Assembly (NCBI GenBank): GCA_030648495.1
Contig: JAUSHV010000004.1
Location: forward strand, 1 to 36,511
Source: a bacterium
Lineage (GTDB): Bacteria > Patescibacteriota > Minisyncoccia > UBA11713 > 2-01-FULL-45-33
DNA length: 36,511 nt
Reading direction: 5' to 3'
This document shows positions 3,579 to 18,601 of the stretch, piece by piece; the stretch's first letter is position 1, and each line of letters starts with the position of its first letter. A model generated the notes under the pieces. The model searched no databases, had not been told where the DNA came from, and saw nothing but the letters and a program-made list of their open reading frames with translations. The position numbers and the translations under genes are program-made.

Positions 3579-3600
3579 AAAATAATTAAATTTTTTCATT

Positions 3601-3705
3601 CGGTGGTTTGAGGCGACGGCACTACCTCTTCCCATCCCGAACAGAGTCGTAAAACGTCGTACTACCGATGATACTCCGAAAGGGGGAAAGTAGGTAACCG
3701 CCGGT
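3601..3705 (+). rRNA. rrf: 5S rRNA
   Basis: The conserved core cccatcccgaacagagtcgtaaaacgtcgtactaccgatgatact...gtaggtaaccgcc is present. The 5' cggtggtt pairs with the 3' aaccgccg. Ends are accurate to about 5 nt. Confidence 0.85.
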
Positions 3706-3724
3706 TGAAAGGATTTAATTTAAT

Positions 3725-5803: not shown

Positions 5804-6951
5804 GGTTTTTTCGAGGAGTTGATTGGGTGCTGGCCTTATCTGCCGTGGTTTTGTCGCTTTTAGGGCTCGCGGCTATGAAATCTTTTGTTATCGGAAACGG
5901 TTCGACTATTCTCACCGCAAGCGACTATTATTTCAACCGCCAGATTTTATGGCTTATTTTAAGCATTTTGGTTTTTATTACCGCTCTGCTTATTGACTGG
6001 GAATTTTTGAAAACGAACAGTATTATTCTACTTTTTTTCTATTTGGTCGCGCTTGTATTTTTAGCCGTACTTCTCTTGGGAGGAGGCAGTATTGTTAAAG
6101 GAGCGGAGAGTTGGTATAAGGTTTATTCCATAGCTTTACAGCCGGTCGAGCTTATGAAAATTATTCTGGTCCTAGTTTTGGCAAAATATTTTTCTAGGAG
6201 GCACGTTGAGATAGCAAGGTTTTTCCATATTTTTGCTTCCGGTATTTATGCGGCTGTCCCGGTTATTTTAGTTATACTTCAGCCTGATTTCGGTTCGGCT
6301 TTCATAATATCCGCTTTGTGGCTCGGCATGGCATTGATCGGAGGCATTAAAGTGCGCCATATACTTTTATTATTTGGGACGGCAGTAATTGCCGGAGTCC
6401 TTGTTTGGAATTTTGTTTTTCTTCCGTATCAGAAATCCAGGATATTGACATTTCTTGAGCCGGCCAGCGACATTCGCGGAGCAGGGTATCATGCCTTGCA
6501 ATCAACCATCGCAGTAGGGTCCGGAGAAATTTTGGGAAAGGGGATCGGCTTCGGCACGCAGTCGAGGCTTTCATTTTTGCCAGAAAAAGAATCAGATTTT
6601 ATTTTCGCCGCTTTCGCGGAAGAGTGGGGGCTCATCGGAGTGCTCATTATATTTTTATTTTTTGGAATTATGATCTGGCGTATCTTGCGGGCGGGGATTT
6701 ACGGTGAATCTAATTTTGAAAAATTATACGCCGCAGGGCTCGCCATTTTATTTGTCTCGCAAGCTTCTATCCATGTAGGCATGAACATGGGGCTTCTGCC
6801 CATAACCGGCCTTGGTATGCCTTTTATGTCTTATGGTGGCTCAAGTCTCGTCTCATCATTTCTCGCAATCGGCATCTTGGAAAGCTTCTCTATCCGCAAA
6901 AAAGGCATATTCATCGGCATGGAGGAACGATTTAAGGAGGGGGTGTTTTGA
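5800..6951 (+). CDS. rodA: SEDS-family peptidoglycan glycosyltransferase (RodA/FtsW family, RodA-like)
   Basis: A polytopic membrane protein with the motifs QPDFGSA and GYHALQSTIAVGSGEILGKGIGFGTQSRLSFLPEKESDFIFAAFAEEWGLIG. Confidence 0.9.
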   Translation: MRFFRGVDWVLALSAVVLSLLGLAAMKSFVIGNGSTILTASDYYFNRQILWLILSILVFITALLIDWEFLKTNSIILLFFYLVALVFLAVLLLGGGSIVKGAESWYKVYSIALQPVELMKIILVLVLAKYFSRRHVEIARFFHIFASGIYAAVPVILVILQPDFGSAFIISALWLGMALIGGIKVRHILLLFGTAVIAGVLVWNFVFLPYQKSRILTFLEPASDIRGAGYHALQSTIAVGSGEILGKGIGFGTQSRLSFLPEKESDFIFAAFAEEWGLIGVLIIFLFFGIMIWRILRAGIYGESNFEKLYAAGLAILFVSQASIHVGMNMGLLPITGLGMPFMSYGGSSLVSSFLAIGILESFSIRKKGIFIGMEERFKEGVF

Positions 6952-7204: not shown

Positions 7205-7399
7205 ATGAAAAATATTATGGTTAATATGACAGCCGAATATATATGTAAAAACTACCATCGCACAAGTTATCCTTACTTGGATATTGAAGCGCAAGAAAAC
7301 AATCAGACAAAACAGACGGAAGCGCATTTGTTGTGTAAAACGTGCGGAGCAGATTTAGAGTTCGATAGAGCAAACGCCTCTCTTAAAACAAAGAAATAA
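7205..7399 (+). CDS. Hypothetical 64-aa protein with sparse Cys/His (C14, H18, C44-x2-C47)
   Basis: ORF only. No clear RBS and no recognisable family. Confidence 0.4.
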   Translation: MKNIMVNMTAEYICKNYHRTSYPYLDIEAQENNQTKQTEAHLLCKTCGADLEFDRANASLKTKK

Positions 7400-8467: not shown

Positions 8468-10204
8468 ATGACGACTGAAGAACAGCCCCAATTTATAAAA
8501 GAATTCTCTAGATCAGAATCGCGCGAAGAAAGAGACAGCCTGGCTCAAGAAATTCGTGAAGAACGACGAAAAGCTTTTTCTGCGGAAAATAAAAATTCCG
8601 AAAATAAAAAAGTAGATTCAATAATAAATGCCACTGAAAATTTGAGAGATAATGTTGAAATAAGTAACAATGACAAGGCGTTTCAGGGAAATATTAATAG
8701 CTTGTTGGAGATTAATAGTTTAAAAAGTCAATTTGATGAAAAATCAGGAACAAATGTGACTTTTGAAGAACGCCTCAAAACTCCCATAGGCGGCCGTCAG
8801 GGGTTAGAGGACACAAGGAAAAAGCTATCTGATTTTTATGACAAGGAAAGACAAAAATGGGCGGAAAATCCGTATACCCAAGCGGATATACAAAAATATT
8901 TTAATGAAGAAAACTTAAAATCTCTGTCAGTTGATGATTACGTGCTTTTTTTGAAGCGTTTTCCCGGTAATATGATCACTCATGTTACCAGGCAAGGAAT
9001 TAGGGATCATTACAGTATTGACAATCACATTGCGGGATTAGGAGAATTTCAAAATAATTTTAAGGATATTCTTGAAAAAAAACAGCTAAATTCCGCCATC
9101 GGTATAGAATTACAGGAATCCTCAAAAGAAAAACTAGTTTCTGATTATTTGGACCAGTTCGTGAAAGATATGCAGGAGGCCGGGTATGAACCGGACCGGG
9201 AAAGCGCTATGAGCAGATTGGAATCGAAGCTTGGATACGGCGCAATTAAAGGAAGTGTTTATAATTTTGCGGACCGATCAGCCATACATGTTGCAACAGA
9301 ACAGGTAGCAGATGCCATATATGGGGGCGAAAAAGGGAATGAAATATTTTTTGTTTTTCCGTCCGCCTACGCGGCGTCTCAAATGGAATTCGGCGGCCAA
9401 CTTAAAGATAATGTAGGCGGATCGCATAACGATCAAAGGATTTGGGCGGACCTAAAAAAAGGAATGAGTTTAGACGCAGGTATAGTTTTTATACCTGAAG
9501 AAACCGAAGTAGATGCAAAGACAGGGTCAAAATACGAGTTAGATGAAAATAACAATCCGATCATCATTGAAGAGAATTTAGCGGAGATCAGGAAGCTAAC
9601 TGATTCGGCTGATTTTCAGGAATTTGCCGGTCAATCTATAAAAATTCTTGGAAAAAGTGAAGCAAATCAAAACCTGGAGGAATTAGATGGGCTTCGTAAA
9701 ACTCTAGCAGAAAAATTTGGCATAAAAAATCAATCTATACGGGATTCTGTTTTAAATTATAGATTTTTGCATGAGGTTAAATATGCAGCCGAAGAAAAAG
9801 AGGATTATCGTAAAATAAAGACAGATAAAGAAATTAGCCAAGTTTTAATGGATAAAGAAAATTTATACTTAAAGGCAAAAGACACCGTAAAATCAAAAGA
9901 ATACTGGGAAAATTATTTTGCACAAAATCCGGAAAAGCGACCATCAAAAAGCGTCTATTATAAAGGTAGCGATCCAACAACAGCGCTAAATGAATGGAGA
10001 GAACGAAATGGAATCTCAAAAAGAGCAGAGGATGCGGATTTTGATTTTGAAGAAAATAAAAAAACTGACAAGGAGATAAATGAAAGCCCAGAACAAAGCC
10101 AGTTCATGGCAATTGCAAAAAAAATAATAGATGAGCGATTTCCCGTAAAAATTAAAGAAAAACGATCTACTTCCGATAAAGACGAGCCACCACCGCTTGA
10201 TTAG
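8468..10204 (+). CDS. Hypothetical 578-aa acidic, Lys/Glu-rich soluble protein
   Basis: A long clean ORF with no TM segment or signal peptide and no motif I can assign. Confidence 0.7.
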   Translation: MTTEEQPQFIKEFSRSESREERDSLAQEIREERRKAFSAENKNSENKKVDSIINATENLRDNVEISNNDKAFQGNINSLLEINSLKSQFDEKSGTNVTFEERLKTPIGGRQGLEDTRKKLSDFYDKERQKWAENPYTQADIQKYFNEENLKSLSVDDYVLFLKRFPGNMITHVTRQGIRDHYSIDNHIAGLGEFQNNFKDILEKKQLNSAIGIELQESSKEKLVSDYLDQFVKDMQEAGYEPDRESAMSRLESKLGYGAIKGSVYNFADRSAIHVATEQVADAIYGGEKGNEIFFVFPSAYAASQMEFGGQLKDNVGGSHNDQRIWADLKKGMSLDAGIVFIPEETEVDAKTGSKYELDENNNPIIIEENLAEIRKLTDSADFQEFAGQSIKILGKSEANQNLEELDGLRKTLAEKFGIKNQSIRDSVLNYRFLHEVKYAAEEKEDYRKIKTDKEISQVLMDKENLYLKAKDTVKSKEYWENYFAQNPEKRPSKSVYYKGSDPTTALNEWRERNGISKRAEDADFDFEENKKTDKEINESPEQSQFMAIAKKIIDERFPVKIKEKRSTSDKDEPPPLD

Positions 10205-10661: not shown

Positions 10662-10758
10662 AGCGGTTTTTTATTACAAATTTGGCATGAATTTGACACG
10701 AAATCATTGGGGCTTGACAGGTTTTTGGCGTCTGCTAGGGTAGTGGATAAGACAGGAT

Positions 10759-10787
10759 TTGACACTTTTTTATAAGTTTGCTAATAT
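10759..10787 (+). promoter_or_regulatory. Promoter TTGACA-N17-TAATAT (TGc-extended). A second TTGACA-N16-TAGGGT lies at ~10716-10743.
   Basis: ttgaca at 10759-10764 and taatat at 10782-10787. There are three TTGACA boxes within 90 nt. Confidence 0.55.
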
Positions 10788-10817
10788 AGTCATAATAATA
10801 TGAAAGGAGAATTACCC

Positions 10818-11834
10818 ATGCACCCCGAGGAAGTAACAACTAAGCTTTTCCAGGTATTGCCAAAGAGGACCAAGGATGTACTTGATCAGCGTTTTGGGCT
10901 GGCAAAAAACCCAAACCGGATGACATTAGACGCTATAGGCCAGCGTTATGGCATTACCCGTGAGAGGGTTCGTCAGATTGAAGCGGACGGGCTTAACCGG
11001 ATAAGAAAATCTTCCACTATGACTGATATGAAGCCGGTGTTCGTCGCGCTCGAAAAGTATTTTGAAGACCAGGGAGGCGTTTTGCCGGAAGCGCAGGCTT
11101 TGAATGCTTTGGCGTCGCATCCCAAACACGAAAACCATGTTTATTTTTTGCTCGCCTTGCACGACCCGTTCGTCAGAATGCATGAAAACGAACATATGCA
11201 CGACCGATGGGCTTACGGCAAAGGAGCCGAGGAAAAAGCAGATAAGGTTTTGAAGAACGCGGTTGATTCTTTGCGTAAGATTGGCGCGCCGGTGGAAGAG
11301 AAAAAATTATACGAAGTAATGGCTTCCAGTGCCCAGACTATTTTGGGTTCAGGCGTCGCTTCTGCTGTTTTAGAAAATTGGCTGGGTCTTTCCAAGCTTA
11401 TTGCTAAAAATTATTTCGGTGAATGGGGGCTTACGGAATTTTCTTCCATCAAGCCCAGGGGAATGAAAGATCTTTCTTTCATGGTGCTTTCAAAAAAAGG
11501 CGAACCTATGCATTTTTCTGAAGTAGCCCAAGGCATAGGTAAGCTTATTGGCCGGGGCGTCCATGTGCAGACCGTGCACAATGAACTCATCAAAGACGTG
11601 CGTTTTGTTCTGGTAGGCCGCGGACTTTACGCGCTTAAAGAATGGGGCTATGAGCCGGGCGTAGTGCGCGATGTAATTTCAAATATGCTTAAAAACAACG
11701 GACCTATGGCAAAAGAAAAAATAATCTCCCTGGTTTCCGAGAAGCGGTTCGTCAAACCAAACACAATACTTATAAATTTAGAGAATAAAAAACACTTTAA
11801 AAAGCTGACTGATGGTCGGTACTCTGTTCGATAA
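10818..11834 (+). CDS. DNA-binding protein with an N-terminal sigma-70 region-4-like HTH and a C-terminal HARE-HTH-like winged helix
   Basis: The RBS aaaggaga lies 8 nt before the ATG at 10818. The N-terminus reads VLDQRFGL...MTLDAIGQRYGITRERVRQIEADGLNRIRK. The C-terminus reads MHFSEVAQGI...VHNELIKDVRFVLVGRGLYALKEWGY. Confidence 0.7.
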   Translation: MHPEEVTTKLFQVLPKRTKDVLDQRFGLAKNPNRMTLDAIGQRYGITRERVRQIEADGLNRIRKSSTMTDMKPVFVALEKYFEDQGGVLPEAQALNALASHPKHENHVYFLLALHDPFVRMHENEHMHDRWAYGKGAEEKADKVLKNAVDSLRKIGAPVEEKKLYEVMASSAQTILGSGVASAVLENWLGLSKLIAKNYFGEWGLTEFSSIKPRGMKDLSFMVLSKKGEPMHFSEVAQGIGKLIGRGVHVQTVHNELIKDVRFVLVGRGLYALKEWGYEPGVVRDVISNMLKNNGPMAKEKIISLVSEKRFVKPNTILINLENKKHFKKLTDGRYSVR

Positions 11835-13092
11835 CCCGATTTTTTTAGGAGGTCTTTTCCTTTTGGCCAGGACCTGGTCAATATGGCTTCCGGTGGCACT
11901 TTTTTTTATTTTTTGGAGCACTTGGACCGGCTATGTTCGGTCTTATTTTATGGCCAGAACGAAATGGGTTCTGCTTGAGATAAAAGTACCGCGCGAACAA
12001 ACAAAAAGTCCTAAAGCGATGGAAAGCATTTTGGCCGGTATTAACGGCACCAACCGCCTCGGCAATATGCGGGAAAGATATTGGAACGGATGGCTGACGC
12101 CGTGGTTCTCGCTTGAGATAACGGGCGATGCGACCGGAGTGCATTTTTACGTGCGTACTACAGAATTTTTAAAAAGAATGATTGAGTCGCAAATTTATGC
12201 GCAGTACCCGGCGTGTGAGATCAAGGTTGTTGAAGACTATACCAAAGCAACTCCGCCGGTAATGCCTACCGTCGGGTGGACGATTTGGGGAAGCGAATAC
12301 ATACATACAAAACCTGATGCTTACCCGATACGCACCTATGAAGATTTTGAATTGGTCGGGATAAGCTCAAAAGAGGAAGACACAAAAATTGACCCTCTTT
12401 CTTCTTTGATTGAATTTTTCGGGACTTTTAAGGCAAGCGAACGAATGTGGCTGCAGATGATTGTGCGCCCGGCCGGGGAAAATTGGATAAAGGAAGGGCA
12501 GACGATAGTTGATAAATTAGGCGGCAAAAAAACTGAAGGACATAAACCGTTGCTCGGAAAAGTTGTCGGCGTAATCGATGATATCATAGGCGGAGTGGCC
12601 GGATCGGCTCCACCGGAAAAAAATCAAAAAAGGGAATCCTTAAATGTAGGTTTTTTTGGGCTTTCTCCGGGCATGATACAAAGCATAAAAGCGCTTGAAC
12701 TCAATATGCAAAAGATCGGTTTTGAAGTAGGTATTCGCTGGACGTATCTTGCCAAGAACGAAGATTATAACGCGTTGGCTATTCCCGCGATCAACGGCAT
12801 ATTCAAGCAATTTGCGTCGCCGAACCTTAATGGATTTAAACTTAATAAAAAAGTAACCACAAGCATAGATTATATTTTTAGAAAAACAAGATTAACTTAC
12901 AGACAGAAAAGAATTTACAACGCATATCGCTGGCGCTCGTTTTTTCATCCACCTTACCGCGGCAAAACAATAGTTCTTTCCAGCTCGGAACTTGCGACGA
13001 TTTATCATTTTCCTGGCATGGTTGTCGGCGCTCCGGCAATGGAACGCATCGACGCCAAGCGCGGCGCTCCTCCAACAAATTTGCCGATTTAA
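11812..13092 (+). CDS. Membrane-anchored protein of unknown function (two N-terminal TM helices), upstream partner of the T4CP-like ATPase
   Basis: The N-terminus is FLGGLFLLARTWSIWLPVALFFIFWSTW, followed by a soluble domain (VLLEIKVPREQTKSPKAME...). It overlaps the previous gene by 23 nt and ends 24 nt upstream of the ATPase gene. Confidence 0.7.
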   Translation: MVGTLFDNPIFLGGLFLLARTWSIWLPVALFFIFWSTWTGYVRSYFMARTKWVLLEIKVPREQTKSPKAMESILAGINGTNRLGNMRERYWNGWLTPWFSLEITGDATGVHFYVRTTEFLKRMIESQIYAQYPACEIKVVEDYTKATPPVMPTVGWTIWGSEYIHTKPDAYPIRTYEDFELVGISSKEEDTKIDPLSSLIEFFGTFKASERMWLQMIVRPAGENWIKEGQTIVDKLGGKKTEGHKPLLGKVVGVIDDIIGGVAGSAPPEKNQKRESLNVGFFGLSPGMIQSIKALELNMQKIGFEVGIRWTYLAKNEDYNALAIPAINGIFKQFASPNLNGFKLNKKVTTSIDYIFRKTRLTYRQKRIYNAYRWRSFFHPPYRGKTIVLSSSELATIYHFPGMVVGAPAMERIDAKRGAPPTNLPI

Positions 13093-13116
13093 GTTTTTTG
13101 TAGTATAATTGTTGAA

Positions 13117-15174
13117 GTGAACGACGATCAGAAAATTACATATTTTGGAGAGGCTAATTACCGCAATTTGCAGAGTCGTTTTGGCATCAAAAAAATCGAC
13201 CGTAGGAAGCATATGTATGTGATAGGGAAAACCGGCATGGGCAAGACCACTCTTTTGGAAAACATGGCGATGCAGGATATTCAGTCGGGAGAAGGAATTG
13301 CTTTTATTGATCCGCATGGAGAAACGGCCTATAAATTACTAGATTTTGTTCCCAAAGAGCGCATGAAAGATGTGATTTATTTTGATCCGGCGGACAGTGA
13401 TTTTCCGATCGGATTCAACGTTATGGAAAATGTTGATCCGGACCGAAGGCATTTTATTGCTTCCGGACTTATGGGAGTTTTCAAAAAAATATTCGGACCA
13501 GATGTATGGTCTGCTCGTATGGAATATATTTTAGGAAATACGGTTTTGGCGCTTCTTGAGTATCCGAATTCTACTCTTCTATCAATAAACCCAATGCTTG
13601 CGGTAAAAGAATACAGAAAAAAAGTTGTTGACAATGTTACCGACCCGGTTATAAAAGCTTTTTGGACGCAGGAGTTTGCGAAATACACAGAACGCTTTGC
13701 TGCTGAAGCTACGCCGGCAATTCAAAATAAAGTCGGACAGTTTACTTCGAACGCACTCATTCGCAATATAATAGGCCAGCCAAAATCAACATTTGATTTC
13801 AGAAAAGCGATGGACGAGAAAAAAATTCTTATAATCAATCTGGCAAAAGGGAGGGTTGGAGAAGACGCTTCAAGGCTTTTGGGCGCGATGATAGTGACGA
13901 AACTTTATTTGGCCGCCATGAGCCGCGTGGATATTGAAGACGAAGAGCACAGGCCAGACTTTTATTTATATGTTGATGAGTTCCAGAATTTTGCGACGGA
14001 GTCTTTCGCTAATATTTTATCGGAGGCCAGGAAATACCGCCTTTGTCTGATACTCGCGCACCAATATATGGCCCAGCTTGCCGAGGAGGTAAGAGACGCG
14101 GTGGTCGGCAACGTGGGCACAATGGTTTCTTTCAGAGTTGGCGCGGAAGACGCGGAATTTTTGGAAAAGGAATTTGGCCCCGATTTTATGGCAACAGACA
14201 TAGTCAATCTGGGATTTGCGCAGGTTTATTTGAAATTAATGATAGACGGCGTGGCTTCCCATCCATTTTCTTCAACAACTTTGCCGCCGATACAGGTTCC
14301 TCATGAATCGTTTAAAGCTGAAATTGTCGCACTTTCTCGAAAGCAATTTGGCACTCCCCGCCAAAAAGTTGATGATATGATTAATGAGTGGTCAAAGACT
14401 ATCTCCGGCGAGATCGGTGAAAAAAAATCTTTTGGCGGAGCGATGGCCAGTCCCGGCGCATCTGCCCACGCAAATACATCAAATCCTGCAAGTTTTGCGC
14501 CTCCGCGGCAGGACATTTCGCAAGCCCGCCTGCCGGACGGGCAGGTTAAAATGTATGATGCGGTATGTGTTGTTTGCAATAAAAAGATACAAGTTCCTTT
14601 TTTGCCCGATCCAAACCGTCCGGTTTTTTGTAAAGACCATATTGGGCTTGCGGGAGAATATAAAGCTAAAACCCGCCTGAATGAATCGGTCGGGCAGATG
14701 CCTGCCCGCAATGCAACTGGTGCAGGCGGGCCGCAACGCCCCACAGAACCGCAGCGCTCAGAACTGCCTCAGGAACCGCGCTTCACAAGACCAGAACCAA
14801 GGCCCGCGCCCCGCCCGATGGACTCGCCCGCAGGGCTACGCCCGAGAGCAGGCGAATTTGTTGCGCGTTTGCCTGTCAATCAGGCAGGGCCAAGGATAGA
14901 ACAACGCGCGTCATTAAAAGACTTAGAGCCGGCGCGGGACGGGGCTTCGCAAGATGAGCGTCATCAACAATTTTCCCGGCCACGGTTCGAGCAACCCTTC
15001 AAGAAAAATGAAAATCTCCAGGCATTGCGCGAAGCGTTGAAAAAATCAATGGAATCGACGCGCGAAGAAAAACAAGAAGAAAAAATAACTCCGGAAATAA
15101 AACCTCAAGCGCCGATACAAAATAATTCTTCTACCTCCGGCACCCTCCGCCCCGGCGAGAGAATCGAGCTATAG
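13117..15174 (+). CDS. VirD4/TraD/TrwB-like (type IV coupling protein / FtsK-HerA superfamily) ATPase without its own TM segment, with a Pro/Arg/Gln-rich C-terminal tail containing a zinc-ribbon-like motif
   Basis: Walker A VIGKTGMGKTT; FIDPHGE; Walker B FYLYVDEFQNFAT; ARKYRLCLILAHQYMAQL. The C-terminus has CVVCNKKIQVPFLPDPNRPVFCKDH. The start codon is GTG. Confidence 0.75.
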   Translation: MNDDQKITYFGEANYRNLQSRFGIKKIDRRKHMYVIGKTGMGKTTLLENMAMQDIQSGEGIAFIDPHGETAYKLLDFVPKERMKDVIYFDPADSDFPIGFNVMENVDPDRRHFIASGLMGVFKKIFGPDVWSARMEYILGNTVLALLEYPNSTLLSINPMLAVKEYRKKVVDNVTDPVIKAFWTQEFAKYTERFAAEATPAIQNKVGQFTSNALIRNIIGQPKSTFDFRKAMDEKKILIINLAKGRVGEDASRLLGAMIVTKLYLAAMSRVDIEDEEHRPDFYLYVDEFQNFATESFANILSEARKYRLCLILAHQYMAQLAEEVRDAVVGNVGTMVSFRVGAEDAEFLEKEFGPDFMATDIVNLGFAQVYLKLMIDGVASHPFSSTTLPPIQVPHESFKAEIVALSRKQFGTPRQKVDDMINEWSKTISGEIGEKKSFGGAMASPGASAHANTSNPASFAPPRQDISQARLPDGQVKMYDAVCVVCNKKIQVPFLPDPNRPVFCKDHIGLAGEYKAKTRLNESVGQMPARNATGAGGPQRPTEPQRSELPQEPRFTRPEPRPAPRPMDSPAGLRPRAGEFVARLPVNQAGPRIEQRASLKDLEPARDGASQDERHQQFSRPRFEQPFKKNENLQALREALKKSMESTREEKQEEKITPEIKPQAPIQNNSSTSGTLRPGERIEL

Positions 15175-15222
15175 ACAAAAATAACAGGGTGTGCTAGACT
15201 ATTGTAAGAAAGGGGAATCAGT

Positions 15223-15540
15223 ATGGATCCTGCGAATTTGATAGGGGTTTACGTAATGTCAGTTTTTCTCTCATTCTTTTTGGGTGTTTTTATTAGCACA
15301 ATTCCTTTGTGGATTCCTGCAATTCTAGAAAGCATAAGAAACCGCGTGAGGGATAAGAAGATTTATAACTATTTGAGTTCTTTAAATAAGGGGACACTAA
15401 GCGATAACGAAAGAGAAAGTTTTTTAGCCCAATATGGCCATGAAGTTGGCTTACAAACTCCATCGCATTTAAAATGCGGGAATTCAAAATGCGGTTGCAA
15501 CTTTGTTAAAGTTTCTCATCATATGTTTTGGTATGGATGA
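15223..15540 (+). CDS. Cassette 1: hypothetical 105-aa protein with an N-terminal TM region and a Cys-rich C-terminus (CGNSKCGC)
   Basis: The promoter TAGACA(15172-15177)-N17-TAGACT(15195-15200) overlaps the ATPase stop codon. The RBS is aaagggga. A hairpin at 15550-15577 is followed by a T-tract. Confidence 0.6.
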   Translation: MDPANLIGVYVMSVFLSFFLGVFISTIPLWIPAILESIRNRVRDKKIYNYLSSLNKGTLSDNERESFLAQYGHEVGLQTPSHLKCGNSKCGCNFVKVSHHMFWYG

Positions 15541-15575
15541 ATGTTGTTGGCCGGTTGAGCGATATCGCTTGCCGG

Positions 15576-15690
15576 CTTTTATTTTTTCTCGGCACGTTCT
15601 ACGTATTCGCCGGTTTATCTTCTCTAATTCGCGCGAATTAGAGATATAGTCGAAATGCTGGACAAAAATAGTAATTCTATGTTATTCTTT
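15576..15690 (+). repeat. Junction repeat R1: efp 3'-end copy (15579-15611), a perfect 24-bp palindrome (15621-15644) and a promoter module TGGACA-N18-TATTCT
   Basis: The reverse complement of 15579-15611 is ggc gaa tac gta gaa cgt gcc gag aaa aaa taa, encoding GEYVERAEKK*. The palindrome is tctctaattcgc|gcgaattagaga. Confidence 0.85.
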
Positions 15691-15723
15691 ATCAAGAACA
15701 GGATCAAGAAAAGGAAGGTTTTT

Positions 15724-16023
15724 ATGGATAAAGAAGGGTTCGCAAAGAAGCTCGTTGATAAAGGGGTTTCAGATAGAATGGCTTTTAAGGCGCTTTTAGA
15801 GTATTTAAGAAAAGCTCCTGCAGAGGACGAAGAATTTTCTAAATTTGTGGCATCACAGCGCCCGGAGGTCTGGAAAAAATTTACTGAATACGTTACTGAT
15901 GGGCACGAATATTGCTGCGGTCCAAACACCATTCAGGACAACGACAGTCATTTAGTCAAAGCATATAAAAGTATGCGGGCTTTTTGCTCGAGAATTAAAT
16001 GGTTTTTAAAATATGGCGAGTAA
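15724..16023 (+). CDS. Cassette 2: hypothetical 99-aa soluble protein
   Basis: This uses the internal ATG preceded by aaaaggaagg. The upstream part of the track ORF overlaps the promoter module. The terminator aaaccgc-attta-gcgggttt with a T-tract lies at 16024-16056. Confidence 0.55.
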   Translation: MDKEGFAKKLVDKGVSDRMAFKALLEYLRKAPAEDEEFSKFVASQRPEVWKKFTEYVTDGHEYCCGPNTIQDNDSHLVKAYKSMRAFCSRIKWFLKYGE

Positions 16024-16042
16024 AAAAACCGCATTTAGCGGG

Positions 16043-16143
16043 TTTTTATTTTTTCTCCGTGCGTTTATTTATGTTCTCTAATTCGCGCGAATAGGAGAAT
16101 AGTAAATCGAGCTATAGACAAAAATAACAGGGTGTGCTAGGAA
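16043..16143 (+). repeat. Junction repeat R2: a degenerate efp tail (16046-16066), an imperfect palindrome (16075-16098), and the ATPase 3' end plus promoter (16105-16143)
   Basis: 16105-16140 is 36/36 identical to 15162-15197 (aatcgagctatagacaaaaataacagggtgtgctag). Confidence 0.85.
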
Positions 16144-16168
16144 TTTAGGAAGAGGAGGGTGAATAAAT

Positions 16169-16495
16169 ATGAAAAAATACACAGGTTTTTTATTGGGATT
16201 GCTCTTTTTTCTTATCGCATCACCGACGAAAGCGGAAGTAGTGGTTGATAATGGAAATTATGCATATATTCGCTTGCGTAAATCAAATTGCGATGGCAAT
16301 CTTGGGCTGACGTTGTCAGTAGAAATTGATGCTTGGGTTAAATCCAAGCAAGAGATTTTTAAACGAGAATCAAAAGAGACGCTTAGAACAAAGGTTCTTA
16401 AAATACAATCAACGGCGCCTCAACTTGAAATAGGATGTTTTGGTTCGTTTGTTTCCGCCGTGGTCGGCATACATATTTTTTATAGCAAAGACTAG
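16169..16495 (+). CDS. Cassette 3: hypothetical secreted 108-aa protein
   Basis: The RBS is gaggagggtg. The signal peptide is MKKYTGFLLGLLFFLIASPTKAEV. A hairpin with a T-tract lies at 16505-16537. Confidence 0.65.
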   Translation: MKKYTGFLLGLLFFLIASPTKAEVVVDNGNYAYIRLRKSNCDGNLGLTLSVEIDAWVKSKQEIFKRESKETLRTKVLKIQSTAPQLEIGCFGSFVSAVVGIHIFYSKD

Positions 16496-16522
16496 TTTTT
16501 TAGAGCCGTTACTTGTTAGCGG

Positions 16523-16622
16523 CTTTTATTTTTTTTCGGCGCGTTCCCTTTTCTCTAATTCGCGCGAATAGGCGAATAGTAAATCGAGCTATAGACAAGA
16601 ATAGTAGAGCGTGCTAGGAATG
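16523..16622 (+). repeat. Junction repeat R3: efp tail (16526-16546, same allele type as the real efp end), an imperfect palindrome (16552-16575), and a diverged ATPase 3' end plus promoter (16582-16620)
   Basis: ttattttttttcggcgcgttc is identical to 18026-18046. The diverged part reads aatcgagctatagacaagaatagtagagcgtgctag. Confidence 0.85.
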
Positions 16623-16642
16623 TATGCAGAAAGGAGATTTTC

Positions 16643-17074
16643 GTGAAAAAAATAAATAAAGGTTACGGTGCTTTAATCGTATTACTGGCTCTGTTTTTTG
16701 CATCTGCTGTTTATGCGCACCCATTGCATTGGCCGCGAGGAGTGCCAGCAGGGGCAGTAATTGTAGCCGGAGAAGTGGTTGAAAAACCTTTCGTTTGGCC
16801 GGAAACCGGTGTACAGGTTTTGAAAATCAAAAATTCGGCTGATTGTAGTTTCGTTGGGATGTATAGCGATACTGTATATAAAGTTAATAAAGGCGACTAT
16901 GTTGTAGTGTATGGAATAATCGGAGGTCCAGATGTTCAAATTTACAATTTAGTCAAAATTACTCGCAGCATAGAATTAGGTGAGAAAAATCTTACTGCCA
17001 ACAAGGAATTTGGAGAGTTTCATCTTTCTTTTGGTCAGTGTGGTAATAAAGTCCCGAGCGTTCCTGTAAAATAA
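16643..17074 (+). CDS. Cassette 4: hypothetical secreted 143-aa protein (GTG start)
   Basis: The RBS is aaaggaga. The signal peptide is MKKINKGYGALIVLLALFFASAVYAHP. A hairpin overlapping the stop codon is followed by a T-tract (17056-17092). Confidence 0.65.
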   Translation: MKKINKGYGALIVLLALFFASAVYAHPLHWPRGVPAGAVIVAGEVVEKPFVWPETGVQVLKIKNSADCSFVGMYSDTVYKVNKGDYVVVYGIIGGPDVQIYNLVKITRSIELGEKNLTANKEFGEFHLSFGQCGNKVPSVPVK

Positions 17075-17080
17075 GGAGCG

Positions 17081-17210
17081 CTTTTATTTTTTCTCGGCAC
17101 GTCCTAAAAATAACAAAATCAAATTAATTTGCTATAGCAGATTAATCGGTAATTGATATTTCGTATTGTAACCGTGCTCTAGATAAAAATGTGGTGGCAT
17201 GCTAGCCTTA
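17081..17210 (+). repeat. Junction repeat R4: efp tail (17084-17103), a diverged linker, and the promoter TAGATA-N17-TAGCCT (17180-17208)
   Basis: ttattttttctcggcacgtcc encodes (G)RAEKK* on the reverse strand. The linker has no palindrome copy. Confidence 0.7.
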
Positions 17211-17231
17211 TGTACAGAAAGGAGATATAAG

Positions 17232-17666
17232 GTGGCGAAAAAGATTACTGAAAGAACTAGTTTGAAAAAGGGAGATATCGTACGTTATCCATCGGGAGAC
17301 GAGTTTTTTGTGGGGATTGTTGTGCGGCGTGAAAAATTTTTAGGGAGAGACGGTTTTTATGCTTTTAGGCGCCACCCTGATGACGAAACAGATAAAGAGT
17401 TAAAGAAGGAAGGAGTTGATTTGTATCAGCGATTGCATATAAAAGATTTAGCTCGCATAACAGCAGAATTAATCGAGCCAGCTGAACTTATGCTTATGTA
17501 CCGAAATGCTCAGACAACGATAGCAAGTTTGAAGTACGAACTTGTTCCTTGTCAAAACGATACACTGGAAAATTGTCTCAAGAAACGGGGGCAATTGATC
17601 GAAAAGATAAAAAAATACGACGAAAAAATCGATGAAATAAGAGGCGATACTCTTGTAACGATCTAA
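17232..17666 (+). CDS. Cassette 5: hypothetical 144-aa soluble protein (GTG start)
   Basis: The RBS aaaggaga lies 6 nt before the GTG. The track ATG at 17199 lies inside the promoter. The terminator acccag-ctat-ctgggt with a T-tract is at 17687-17720. Confidence 0.6.
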   Translation: MAKKITERTSLKKGDIVRYPSGDEFFVGIVVRREKFLGRDGFYAFRRHPDDETDKELKKEGVDLYQRLHIKDLARITAELIEPAELMLMYRNAQTTIASLKYELVPCQNDTLENCLKKRGQLIEKIKKYDEKIDEIRGDTLVTI

Positions 17667-17703
17667 TAAAGAAATATAAAAATGAAAAACCCAGCTATCT
17701 GGG

Positions 17704-17755
17704 TTTTTTTATTTTTTCTCGGCACTGGACAAAAATTTTATGGTATGCTAGGAAT
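17704..17755 (+). repeat. Junction repeat R5: a short efp tail (17709-17725) fused directly to the promoter TGGACA-N17-TAGGAA (17726-17754)
   Basis: ttattttttctcggcac encodes AEKK* on the reverse strand. The sequence then continues tggacaaaaattttatggtatgctaggaa. Confidence 0.75.
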
Positions 17756-17782
17756 ATAGATAGAAAGGAGGATAGTAGCGTT

Positions 17783-17971
17783 ATGTTTATCGACGATTAT
17801 AGAGACGATGACGTTTCTCCTGAAGCTCTATTGGCGCGTAGAGGTGTACCATTGGAAAAGGACAAGATTACTGACCCTCAAGCCTTGCTAGTTCTGGCTT
17901 ATGGCGGCTCTCGAGATAAAGCTATCGCAATTCAAAATGCCAATCGGCTCCAATCGCTATTACGAACTTGA
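17783..17971 (+). CDS. Cassette 6: hypothetical 62-aa protein
   Basis: The RBS is aaaggagga. The terminator cctcgctg-tcaa-cggcgggg (18003-18022) uses the efp stop-codon region as its T-tract. Confidence 0.5.
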   Translation: MFIDDYRDDDVSPEALLARRGVPLEKDKITDPQALLVLAYGGSRDKAIAIQNANRLQSLLRT

Positions 17972-18025
17972 ACATCGACAAAATTTTAAGTGTTCCCTAT
18001 ACCCTCGCTGTCAACGGCGGGGCTT

Positions 18026-18601
18026 TTATTTTTTTTCGGCGCGTTCGACGTATTCACCAATTGAGGTGTTTACGCGGATGGTGTCGCCTTCGTTGATAAA
18101 CATCGGAACTTGCATGTTGAGACCATTTTCTAAAACTACCGTTTTTGAGCCGCCGGTGGCCGTGTCGCCCTTGTATGACGGTGGGGCTTCCACGACTTTG
18201 TAGTCAATTTTTACCGGAAGTTCGATATTGATTATTTTATCGTCAAATTTATATGCGACTACTTCGGTATTTGGAAGCAGGTAAGGGGCTTGGTCGGCGA
18301 TTTGTTCTTCTTTGAAAGAAAAACGATTTTTTAGATTGCCTTTTTCCGCAAACCAATACTCATCTTTATTTTCATATAAAAATACTATTGATTGTTTATC
18401 TATTTCCGCTTCTAGAAAAGCATCACTGCCTTGAAAAGCTTTTTGTACAATTTTGCCTGTAATAAGATTTTTCAGCTTGGTTTGCACCGTCGGTTTTCTT
18501 TGTTGCATGCGCAAAAAAGTATATTCCAAAACAATGTACGGTTCGCCGTCCATTACGAAAAGCACTCCTTTAGTTAAATCAGTATATGACAACATATGCA
18601 A
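18026..18601 (-). CDS. efp: Elongation factor P
   Basis: EF-P fold strings are present: DLTKGVLFVMDGEPYIVLEY..., KVVEAPPSYKGDTATGGSKTVVLENGLNMQVPMFINEGDTIRVNT. An alternative start lies at 18595. Confidence 0.9.
   Translation of the reverse strand: MHMLSYTDLTKGVLFVMDGEPYIVLEYTFLRMQQRKPTVQTKLKNLITGKIVQKAFQGSDAFLEAEIDKQSIVFLYENKDEYWFAEKGNLKNRFSFKEEQIADQAPYLLPNTEVVAYKFDDKIINIELPVKIDYKVVEAPPSYKGDTATGGSKTVVLENGLNMQVPMFINEGDTIRVNTSIGEYVERAEKK

Follow-up and report, generated by a model that had tools for sequence, protein, structure and literature searches.

Six small gene units between a T4CP-like ATPase gene and efp in a Candidate Phyla Radiation bacterium: a candidate integrase-free gene-exchange slot

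What kind of element is the row of six small genes that separates a gene for a type IV coupling protein-like (T4CP-like) ATPase from efp, the gene of elongation factor P, in contig JAUSHV010000004.1 (assembly GCA_030648495.1)? The genomes of the Candidate Phyla Radiation (CPR) are about 0.6 Mb in size and contain few recognizable mobile elements, and their gene gain is poorly known. The whole stretch of 36,511 nucleotides, called here the window, has been analysed in silico and compared with other metagenome and genome stretches, which bear L numbers (e.g. L001, L208 and L245, the last being the complete genome CP066687.1). A preliminary description of the row had likened it to integron cassettes and had offered two origins, the integration of circular units or the tandem stacking of alleles from different donors. 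The second option is the best fit, as the copies of the efp end found between the units match other lineages and the family of the fifth gene is confined to this site. With moderate confidence, the ATPase-efp site is regarded as an integrase-free gene-exchange slot of the “minimal mobile element” type, in which alleles from multiple donors have been stacked.

The slot is bounded by two lineage-conserved genes. The order sigma-r4/HARE-HTH gene, DUF8128 gene, ATPase gene, slot, convergent efp and gatB is kept across the relatives (L001-L005, L007, L008, L010, L011, L208-L220 and L231-L245). The number of units at the slot is zero, one, two or three in these loci and six in the window. The empty slots have either 1 nt between the two stop codons (GAGTTATAA followed by TTATTTTTTCTC; L007 and L008) or 12 nt (L005 and L217/218), one unit is present in L003/219/220, L004, L209-216 and L243, and two to three units are found in L001, L208, L011 and L231-240. 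Each lineage carries different whole-gene cassettes, from zero to six units of differing content, and homologous cassettes differ in position, in agreement with the variable, cassette-like array that had been proposed. Contigs of the same population (eight in L209-216, ten in L231-240) are identical in layout across samples; the slot varies between lineages, and no variation within a population was seen.

Four kinds of unit recur solely at this slot, at differing positions; (i) the second ORF of the window (99 aa, 15724-16023, + strand) has 57% amino acid identity to the gene directly 3' of the ATPase gene in L010, where it holds rank 1 instead of rank 2, and a by-eye comparison indicates that the promoter and leader of the two are homologous; (ii) the fifth ORF (144 aa, GTG start, 17232-17666, + strand) is a member of a family that has 11 representatives in 5.8 billion proteins, and every one with readable context sits at this slot, with rank 5 in the window, rank 1 of 2 in L231-240, rank 1 in L241 and L242, and as the sole unit in L243; (iii) a DUF5680 gene lies next to efp in L208 and CP066687.1; (iv) a gene for an extremely basic peptide of 37-40 aa (..KPKKLWRTPKGAKRYK..) holds rank 1 in L001 (interval ORF 146-268, directly 3' of the ATPase stop), L011, L208 and L209-216, a gene that the window lacks. 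In the homologs of the fifth ORF, the upstream sequence aligns from the ATPase stop through the promoter and the ribosome-binding site to the start codon, which indicates that the moving unit consists of promoter, ORF and terminator.

The remaining four ORFs, all on the + strand, have few or no relatives. The first (105 aa, 15223-15540) begins with a hydrophobic N-terminal segment and has no family match, and neither has the sixth (62 aa, 17783-17971). The third (108 aa, 16169-16495) and the fourth (143 aa, GTG start, 16643-17074) possess signal-peptide-like N-termini; the third is a near-orphan, with one partial relative among 1.84 billion representative proteins and no match in an exact-protein look-up, and the fourth is a complete orphan. 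Searches of the six ORFs against Pfam and PHROGs gave nothing significant, and no mutual similarity was detectable among them. The ORF calls (15223-17971) thereby confirm six unrelated + strand ORFs between the convergent ATPase gene and efp. The fourth and fifth ORFs are recorded solely from this metagenome contig of 36,511 nt, and the array has no second assembly.

Two slots of relatives hold a further kind of content. A non-coding stretch of about 250-300 nt in L010 (~10690-10950) and L242 (~6340-6459), with its own TATAAT box and terminator (GTCYCTACCGAGTYRCACAGAGGAGGGRCTATGCTGGCC...), is conserved between the two lineages and has no counterpart in Rfam. It is put forward as a candidate small RNA that occupies the slot in the manner of a cassette.

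The junctions between the units retain copies of the efp 3' end, referred to here as fossils E1 to E5. The efp-tail word TTTTATTTTTTYTCGGCRC (up to 3 mismatches) has 8 matches in the window against 0.33 expected; the real efp end and the copies at five junctions account for six of them. E1, which aligns well past the terminator T-tract, encodes in its reverse complement (15579-15614) TGEYVERAEKK-stop, 12 efp codons, where the real gene encodes SIGEYVERAEKK-stop. The copies are therefore real, and the four differences reported between E1 and the real gene over GEYVERAEKK-stop are indeed all synonymous. Past the T-tract, E1 shares 34 of 36-37 nt with the genuine tails of efp in L243, L010 and L007 and reads T-G-E-Y as these do, whereas the resident efp reads I-G-E-Y. 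The other fossils are shorter (15-23 nt, within a whole range of 15-37 nt); E2 is identical to the L002 efp tail at 19 of 20 nt, and E3 to the resident tail at 21 of 21. Three efp-tail alleles were found instead of the two originally distinguished: CTCGGCAC in E1, E4 and E5, CTCCGTGCG in E2, and TTCGGCGCG in E3 and the real efp. E1 and E2 thus match the efp alleles of other lineages better than that of the resident gene, and the presence of three alleles suggests that the units were imported from at least three lineages. A simpler case, independent of the window, is provided by CP066687.1, where the DUF5680 gene is followed by a 36-nt donor-type efp tail (AGEYVERAEKK-stop), a hairpin and the resident efp end (GEYVERAEKM-stop), the two tails having about 10 mostly synonymous differences. 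Judging from this case, cassettes evidently arrive with the efp end of the donor.

The end of the ATPase gene is copied as well. The identity of 15162-15197 to 16105-16140 at 36 of 36 nt was reproduced, and 16582-16617 is a diverged copy, as confirmed in a 71-nt alignment (16074-16144 against 16551-16621, 91.5% identity). To the three junctions described as carrying an ATPase tail, which all stand, junction 4 has to be added, with the diverged fossil GTGCTCTAG (17172-17180) seen by alignment with the ATPase-stop/promoter regions of the homologs of the fifth ORF in L243, L241, L242 and L231. The ATPase stop is the TAG of TAGACA in every occupied locus (in the window, the TAG at 15172-15174 forms the first half of the -35 box of cassette 1), and in the empty loci it is a TAA abutting the efp stop. 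At the opposite end, the T-tract of the last terminator consists in every locus of the efp stop and the Lys-Lys codons (E-K-K-stop = TTATTTTTTCTC). Since the promoter overlaps one stop and the terminator the other, a functional unit carries a few codons of both genes. The order efp tail, linker, ATPase tail, previously read as the mark of circular units, is present at the junctions; the circles are possible but unneeded, because a head-to-tail concatenation of units that overlap both flanking stops gives the same permuted order.

Each ORF has its own predicted promoter, ribosome-binding site, and hairpin with T-tract, in accordance with the earlier account, as seen by promoter and terminator scans and by folding; the expression of each unit is likewise a prediction. 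The pattern upstream of each ORF is T(A/G)GACA-N17/18-TA...T, mostly TG-extended and combined with a GGAG-type ribosome-binding site, and all six promoters form one family of about 50 nt, T(A/G)GACAAAAAT...TG(C/G)TAGGAAT...CAGAAAGGAG. The word TRGACAAAAAT (up to 1 mismatch) has 13 matches in the window against 3.8 expected, and six of them, all on the + strand, are the cassette promoters. A hairpin followed by TTTTATTTTTT was found at all six cassette 3' ends (z from -2.5 to -6.1 against shuffles), and the terminator scan also calls four of the six. Promoter and terminator words as generic genome signals were considered and rejected, both words being confined to the array within the window.

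Read along the + strand, the array begins with junction 0 (15162..15222, promoter scan), formed by the genuine ATPase tail (AATCGAGCTATAG), the promoter TAGACA-N17-TAGACT with TG, and the ribosome-binding site. The terminator hairpin of cassette 1 and E1 (15549..15616; fold z -3.8) are followed by the cassette 2 promoter TGGACA-N18-TATTCT, TG-extended, and its leader (15659..15723; promoter scan), and by the cassette 2 hairpin with E2, of the CTCCGTGCG allele (16020..16065; fold and alignment). Next are the ATPase-tail fossil identical to 15162-15197 with the cassette 3 promoter TAGACA-N17-TAGGAA and ribosome-binding site (16105..16168), and the cassette 3 hairpin with E3, of the TTCGGCGCG allele (16502..16546). 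The diverged ATPase-tail fossil, cassette 4 promoter and ribosome-binding site (16582..16642) were located by repeat alignment; the cassette 4 hairpin with E4, of the CTCGGCAC allele, occupies 17056..17102. The fossil GTGCTCTAG precedes the cassette 5 promoter TAGATA-N17-TAGCCT and ribosome-binding site (17170..17231), and the cassette 5 hairpin with E5 (17 nt) extends over 17684..17725. The hairpins of cassettes 3, 4 and 5 and their fossils were each found by terminator scan, fold and alignment. The cassette 6 promoter TGGACA-N17-TAGGAA and ribosome-binding site (17726..17782) and the cassette 6 hairpin (18003..18034) close the array, the T-tract of the latter coinciding with the stop and Lys-Lys codons of the genuine efp, read in reverse complement.

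Palindromes occupy the space between the tails at most of the internal junctions. The palindrome P, of 32 nt, has the form CTATTCTCTAATTCGCGCGAAT(TAGA/AGGC)GAATAG and three copies in the window, all within the array: 15617..15648 (perfect type ...TCTCTAATTCGCGCGAATTAGAGA...), 16071..16102 (AGGAGAATAG type) and 16548..16579 (AGGCGAATAG type). The linker word TCTCTAATTCGCGCGAAT has 6 matches in the window against 0.06 expected. A palindromic linker between the tails, as formerly stated, thus holds in the form of P for three of the five internal junctions; a different palindrome, Q (17108..17161, AATTAATTTGCTATAGCAGATTAAT core), stands at junction 4, and junction 5 has none, E5 being fused straight to the cassette 6 promoter. 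The same fusion of an efp fossil to TGGACA occurs in L241 and L002. The E2-P module has 91% identity over 57-59 nt to junctions in L001 and L208, and for the E4-Q module the identity to junctions of L208 and L231 is 89-91% over 73-75 nt. CP066687.1 has a symmetric variant of Q (TCCGC...GCGGA for TTTGC...GCAGA) upstream of the DUF5680 gene, directly after the ATPase stop.

Two side observations concern the palindromes in relatives. The array of L208 ends (~8570-8680) with an “empty” unit, composed of an efp fossil, P, an ORF-less TAGACA promoter-like site and the real efp stop; this promoter, if active, would transcribe antisense to efp. Three independent Logan contigs (L246, L247 and L250) end at the exact centre of a perfect 32-nt Q-like palindrome, ACCAATTAATCCGCTATAGCGGATTAATTGGT (L245 ~7290-7330). 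Their ends probably represent an assembler break at the palindrome, with the consequence that slot arrays would often be cut in short-read assemblies.

The notion of the linker as a private joint of circles had to be abandoned, as P is a metagenome-widespread palindrome tied to an ArsR-family gene. Its 16-nt core occurs in at least 120 metagenome stretches, part of them chance 16-mers, and the extended motif at 92 distinct sites, the window, L001 and L208 included, among the stretches listed. The commonest neighbour is an ArsR-family gene of about 90 aa (PF01022, 27-38 bits against a cutoff of 22), found at 22 loci among those listed and bracketed by two P copies 303-365 nt apart, e.g. in L092 (3660-3984), L182 (527-845), L175 (1974-2354), L186 (553-899) and L138 (3694-4043). 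The upstream copy overlaps the promoter of this gene, a TATAAT-like box following at once, and the downstream copy holds the stop codon (..CTC TAA TTC..). Upstream of a distantly related ArsR-like gene, in L077, lies a variant of the palindrome with unchanged outer arms (CTATTCTCAAATTCTCAAGAATTTGAGAATAG). The palindrome therefore overlaps the promoter of its regulator in other loci, not in the window, and P is probably the operator of a small ArsR-family repressor encoded elsewhere. The next commonest neighbour of P is a treble-clef zinc-finger protein of about 570 aa (8 loci among those listed). A dispersed palindromic repeat of the REP/MITE type, which would have many, chiefly extragenic copies per genome, was considered as well; the counts are three copies of P in the window, about three sites in the 1.58 Mb covered in relatives, and at least 120 metagenome stretches with the 16-nt core, chance matches included.

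Other roles of P were tried and rejected. As a DNA-uptake-type over-represented word it is far too rare: the loci of relatives, 1.58 Mb in all, contain about 3 sites (in L001, in L208 and, in degenerate form, in L010). A folded RNA or single-stranded DNA hairpin with a covarying outer stem does not hold in general: although a few loci have perfect palindromes of 38-42 nt, the positions beyond the 32-nt core are complementary at 40-49% of pairs over the 92 sites, against 37-43% in shuffled controls. A simple in-frame coding insertion, comparable to the Rickettsia palindromic element, is contradicted by MurD proteins with P (L150/L173) that have the length of the P-free one in L099. Viral-contig scans gave 7 matches to P, none with the extended motif, and none to Q. 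Rfam searches (15000-18200 at permissive E-values, the whole window at gathering scores) assigned no family to the linkers or junctions; the matches were confined to 23S and 5S rRNA and terminator-like noise.

Full P motifs also occur inside coding genes: MurD-like (L173 2244-3557 and L150 1-1175; L099 6002-7366, at a different position), MnmA (L105 5366-6697, L117), Tgt (L131 1581-2828), cysteine desulfurase-like (L135 7392-8546) and Dus (L116, L200). They read ..SLIRANRRI.. or ..SNSRELEN.. and are explained neither by the operator idea nor by a simple insertion. In addition, L138 (~1985-2210) has three P-like copies in tandem, about 80 nt apart, and in L120 (reverse strand, ~3186, 4030 and 4610) P is part of a repeat of about 90 nt with three copies between unrelated genes.

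How could such an array be assembled? In the proposed exchange slot, the simplest occupied state would be one unit, with its -35 box on the ATPase stop (TAG-ACA) and its T-tract on the last codons of efp, and the array of the window would be a head-to-tail stack of six units, alleles of one locus. DNA of relatives would be taken up and recombined by housekeeping recombination, one end being anchored in a flanking core gene or in a junction module of 20-70 nt and the other attached through short homology or illegitimately, as in homology-facilitated illegitimate recombination. A new unit would come to lie beside the resident one and would not replace it. Later, unequal crossing-over between junction modules could duplicate, delete and reshuffle units. 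The fossil lengths of 15-37 nt are those expected from imprecise joints. P and Q would be protein-binding regulatory sites that move with the promoter region, not recombination joints, and the conserved junction modules would reflect common descent and spread by homologous recombination. The separate elements of this scheme are documented: recombination at the core genes around integrase-free hotspots diversifies their content, above all in species capable of transformation (Oliveira et al. 2017, PMC5635113), minimal mobile elements have been defined (PMC3082526, after Saunders and Snyder 2002), and one-sided homologous plus illegitimate joining has been described (PMC3240628).

Several points weigh against this reading. 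The stacking step is deduced from sequences, and the competence of the organism is an assumption. At three junctions, the efp fossil and the ATPase fossil have P exactly between them, and the E-P (57-59 nt) and E-Q (73-75 nt) modules are about 90% conserved between genomes that have different ORFs next to them. Illegitimate joints made at random would not repeat one module, so that either descent with spread by homologous recombination or a site-directed process is needed. The segment-wise identity to the efp of L002 climbs from 72% to 84% toward the 3' end, a hint of mosaicism that constraint could equally explain. As regards P as an operator, tblastn found no ArsR-like gene in the 36.5 kb window, and the spacing between P and the -35 box ranges between 0 and 12 nt across these arrays (9-12 nt in the window), with no fixed operator-promoter geometry.

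A site-directed process could be a site-specific cassette system, in which a recombinase encoded elsewhere or by another element uses either the palindromes P and Q, in the role of attC-like sites, or the efp tail, in that of an att core, much as integrase-less cis-mobilizable elements accrete in tandem at the 3' end of a gene. Such a system, which we consider unlikely, would account for junction modules that are conserved between genomes though the adjoining ORFs differ, for P dividing unrelated genes in the arrays of L138 (2057, 3158, 3694 and 4028) and L120, for the cassette-like look of the ArsR-like gene between two P copies, for an efp fossil cut at the same position before TGGACA in three genomes (junction 5 of the window, L241 and L002), and for the “empty” terminal unit of L208, in which efp fossil, P and promoter are followed by efp. 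It is opposed by the lack of a recombinase: no recombinase domain was found in any ORF of at least 100 aa in the 36.5 kb window, in line with the absence of a visible integrase already reported, and none in six relatives (L208, L209, L217, L219, L231 and L245) among the genes called in the 6-8 kb around the slot. Furthermore, there is no one shared site, P being present at three junctions, Q at one and neither at one. The efp fossils are unequal in length (15-37 nt), and a copy of the efp tail, found to the right of every unit, is absent in all arrays between the ATPase stop and the first promoter, the left border where attL would be expected; the same target repeat is thus not present at both borders and every junction. 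P, moreover, overlaps the ArsR-gene promoter in the manner of an operator, its outer arms have no folded-hairpin covariation, and P-like sites are rare in the 1.58 Mb of relatives' loci.

The bolder form of this idea, that P and Q are the recombination sites of an undescribed CPR cassette platform whose recombinase is encoded elsewhere or replaced by hairpin-directed housekeeping enzymes, is judged improbable. If it were true, promoter-to-terminator units, the P-bracketed ArsR-like gene and the arrays of L138 and L120 included, would move between P and Q sites in many contexts, and the ATPase-efp array would be one of the landing sites of an integron-like system able to work with no integrase next to it.

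Growth in situ has an equally low probability. Here an ancestral promoter/terminator junction would have been duplicated by slippage or unequal crossing-over, and the ORFs would be local, fast-evolving or de novo genes, with no import. All promoters belong to one family of about 50 nt, a 71-nt stretch of junctions 2 and 3 shows 91.5% identity, junctions 0 and 2 agree at every position over 36 nt, and the cargo includes one complete orphan (the fourth ORF), a near-orphan (the third) and two ORFs with no family match (the first and sixth), as this explanation would have it. By contrast, orthologs of the second and fifth ORFs occupy this slot in other lineages, each with a promoter that has diverged along with it, E1 and E2 are closer to the efp alleles of other lineages than to the resident one, and the six ORFs have no detectable mutual similarity. 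An assembly artefact, i.e. the chaining of single-cassette strains into one contig via shared promoter and terminator repeats, is highly improbable: the array is known from a single metagenome contig, contains exact repeats of 19-36 nt, and has relatives among the Logan contigs that break inside the slot, but strain chaining cannot create junctions with P, Q and truncated fossils that every single-cassette allele lacks, the same modules occur in independent assemblies (L001, L208, the ten contigs L231-240 from different samples, and CP066687.1), and breaks at the centre of a perfect palindrome are a known assembler limit. Both in situ growth and assembly chimerism appear to fit less well than the stacking of imported alleles.

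The window is a contig of a groundwater bacterium of Candidatus Giovannonibacteria. The array lies in ordinary chromosome, with 23S and 5S rRNA, ftsW, dnaE, a proS-like gene, miaA, gatB, rnc and smc around it. The left border of the slot is the T4CP-like (TrwB/TraG-type) ATPase gene with a treble-clef zinc finger (13117..15174, + strand; Pfam PF10412, PF12696 and PF23477), whose product has 78% identity to the ATPase of a Candidatus Giovannonibacteria metagenome-assembled genome (a CPR/Parcubacteria lineage). The right border is efp (18026..18595, - strand; Pfam PF09285 and PF08207). A second variable slot is found between the DUF8128 gene and the ATPase gene, where two lineages carry a gene of 100-103 aa (L208 11600-11902; L209 9163-9474) and the window has a gap of just 24 nt (13092-13117). 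The window starts inside a 23S rRNA gene (1-1912), and within the 23S match there is a LAGLIDADG endonuclease ORF (453-941), an intron-type insertion; a second such ORF (2396-2890) lies downstream, followed by 5S rRNA (3599-3706).

The slot may be read as an unusually legible record of gene gain, as each unit keeps codons of the donor flank, and the donor allele type and, in principle, the order of arrival are readable from the sequence. It is also a permissive locus: with a -35 box and a T-tract supplied by the stops of two convergent core genes, an inserted ORF is expected to be expressed and insulated. The cargo consists of small proteins, predicted to be secreted or membrane-associated, or orphan, beside a conserved T4CP-like ATPase cluster, and, speculatively, it may bear on the cell-surface and host-interaction biology of episymbionts. 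The 32-nt palindrome with the ArsR-family gene is a candidate conserved regulon in these bacteria.

The analogy with integrons was not sustained, as the array fails the tests of an integrase, an attC site and promoterless cassettes. As in integrons, small and mostly orphan ORFs form a tandem array on one strand, repeats of about 60-150 nt with imperfect palindromes lie between them, and content and order vary among relatives. Unlike integrons, the array has no intI, attI or common Pc promoter found: no IntI-type tyrosine recombinase (Phage_integrase domain) was found among the ORFs of at least 100 aa in the window, every unit has its own predicted promoter and terminator, and the repeats derive from the flanking genes. 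A common attC-like site is missing, the junctions carrying P, Q or nothing, and only the efp-tail/T-tract is common to all. The array seems to resemble an integron in outline only.

Integration at tRNA genes or gene 3' ends, and the accretion of cis-mobilizable elements and integrative and conjugative elements in streptococci, produce tandem arrays at the 3' end of a target gene. Similarly, direct repeats of the efp 3' end mark every junction here, and the intact end lies at the last unit. In contrast, the array has no left-border repeat, the repeats are unequal, no integrase was found and the ATPase end is copied too. The operators of ArsR/SmtB repressors share with P the form of a long palindrome (14-4-14) over the promoter of an ArsR-family gene of about 90 aa at many loci, with a variant palindrome upstream of a distant family member. 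P differs in lying 9-12 nt upstream of the -35 box in the window, with the regulator gene out of view, and in occurring inside some coding genes; it is a candidate operator.

The closest likeness is to the minimal mobile elements of Neisseria and integrase-free hotspots. In both cases, whole-gene cassettes between two conserved genes differ by lineage, no mobility genes are located inside, and exchange is ascribed to housekeeping recombination of imported DNA. The differences relate to the stacking of up to six units, which elsewhere are swapped one for one, to the construction of each unit as a promoter-to-terminator module of 0.3-0.6 kb, to the junctions, where fossils of the two neighbouring gene ends are retained together with conserved palindromic modules, and to the host, a CPR bacterium with a genome of about 0.65 Mb. 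On present evidence, the array is best described as a putative minimal-mobile-element slot with piled-up alleles rather than as a new recombination system.

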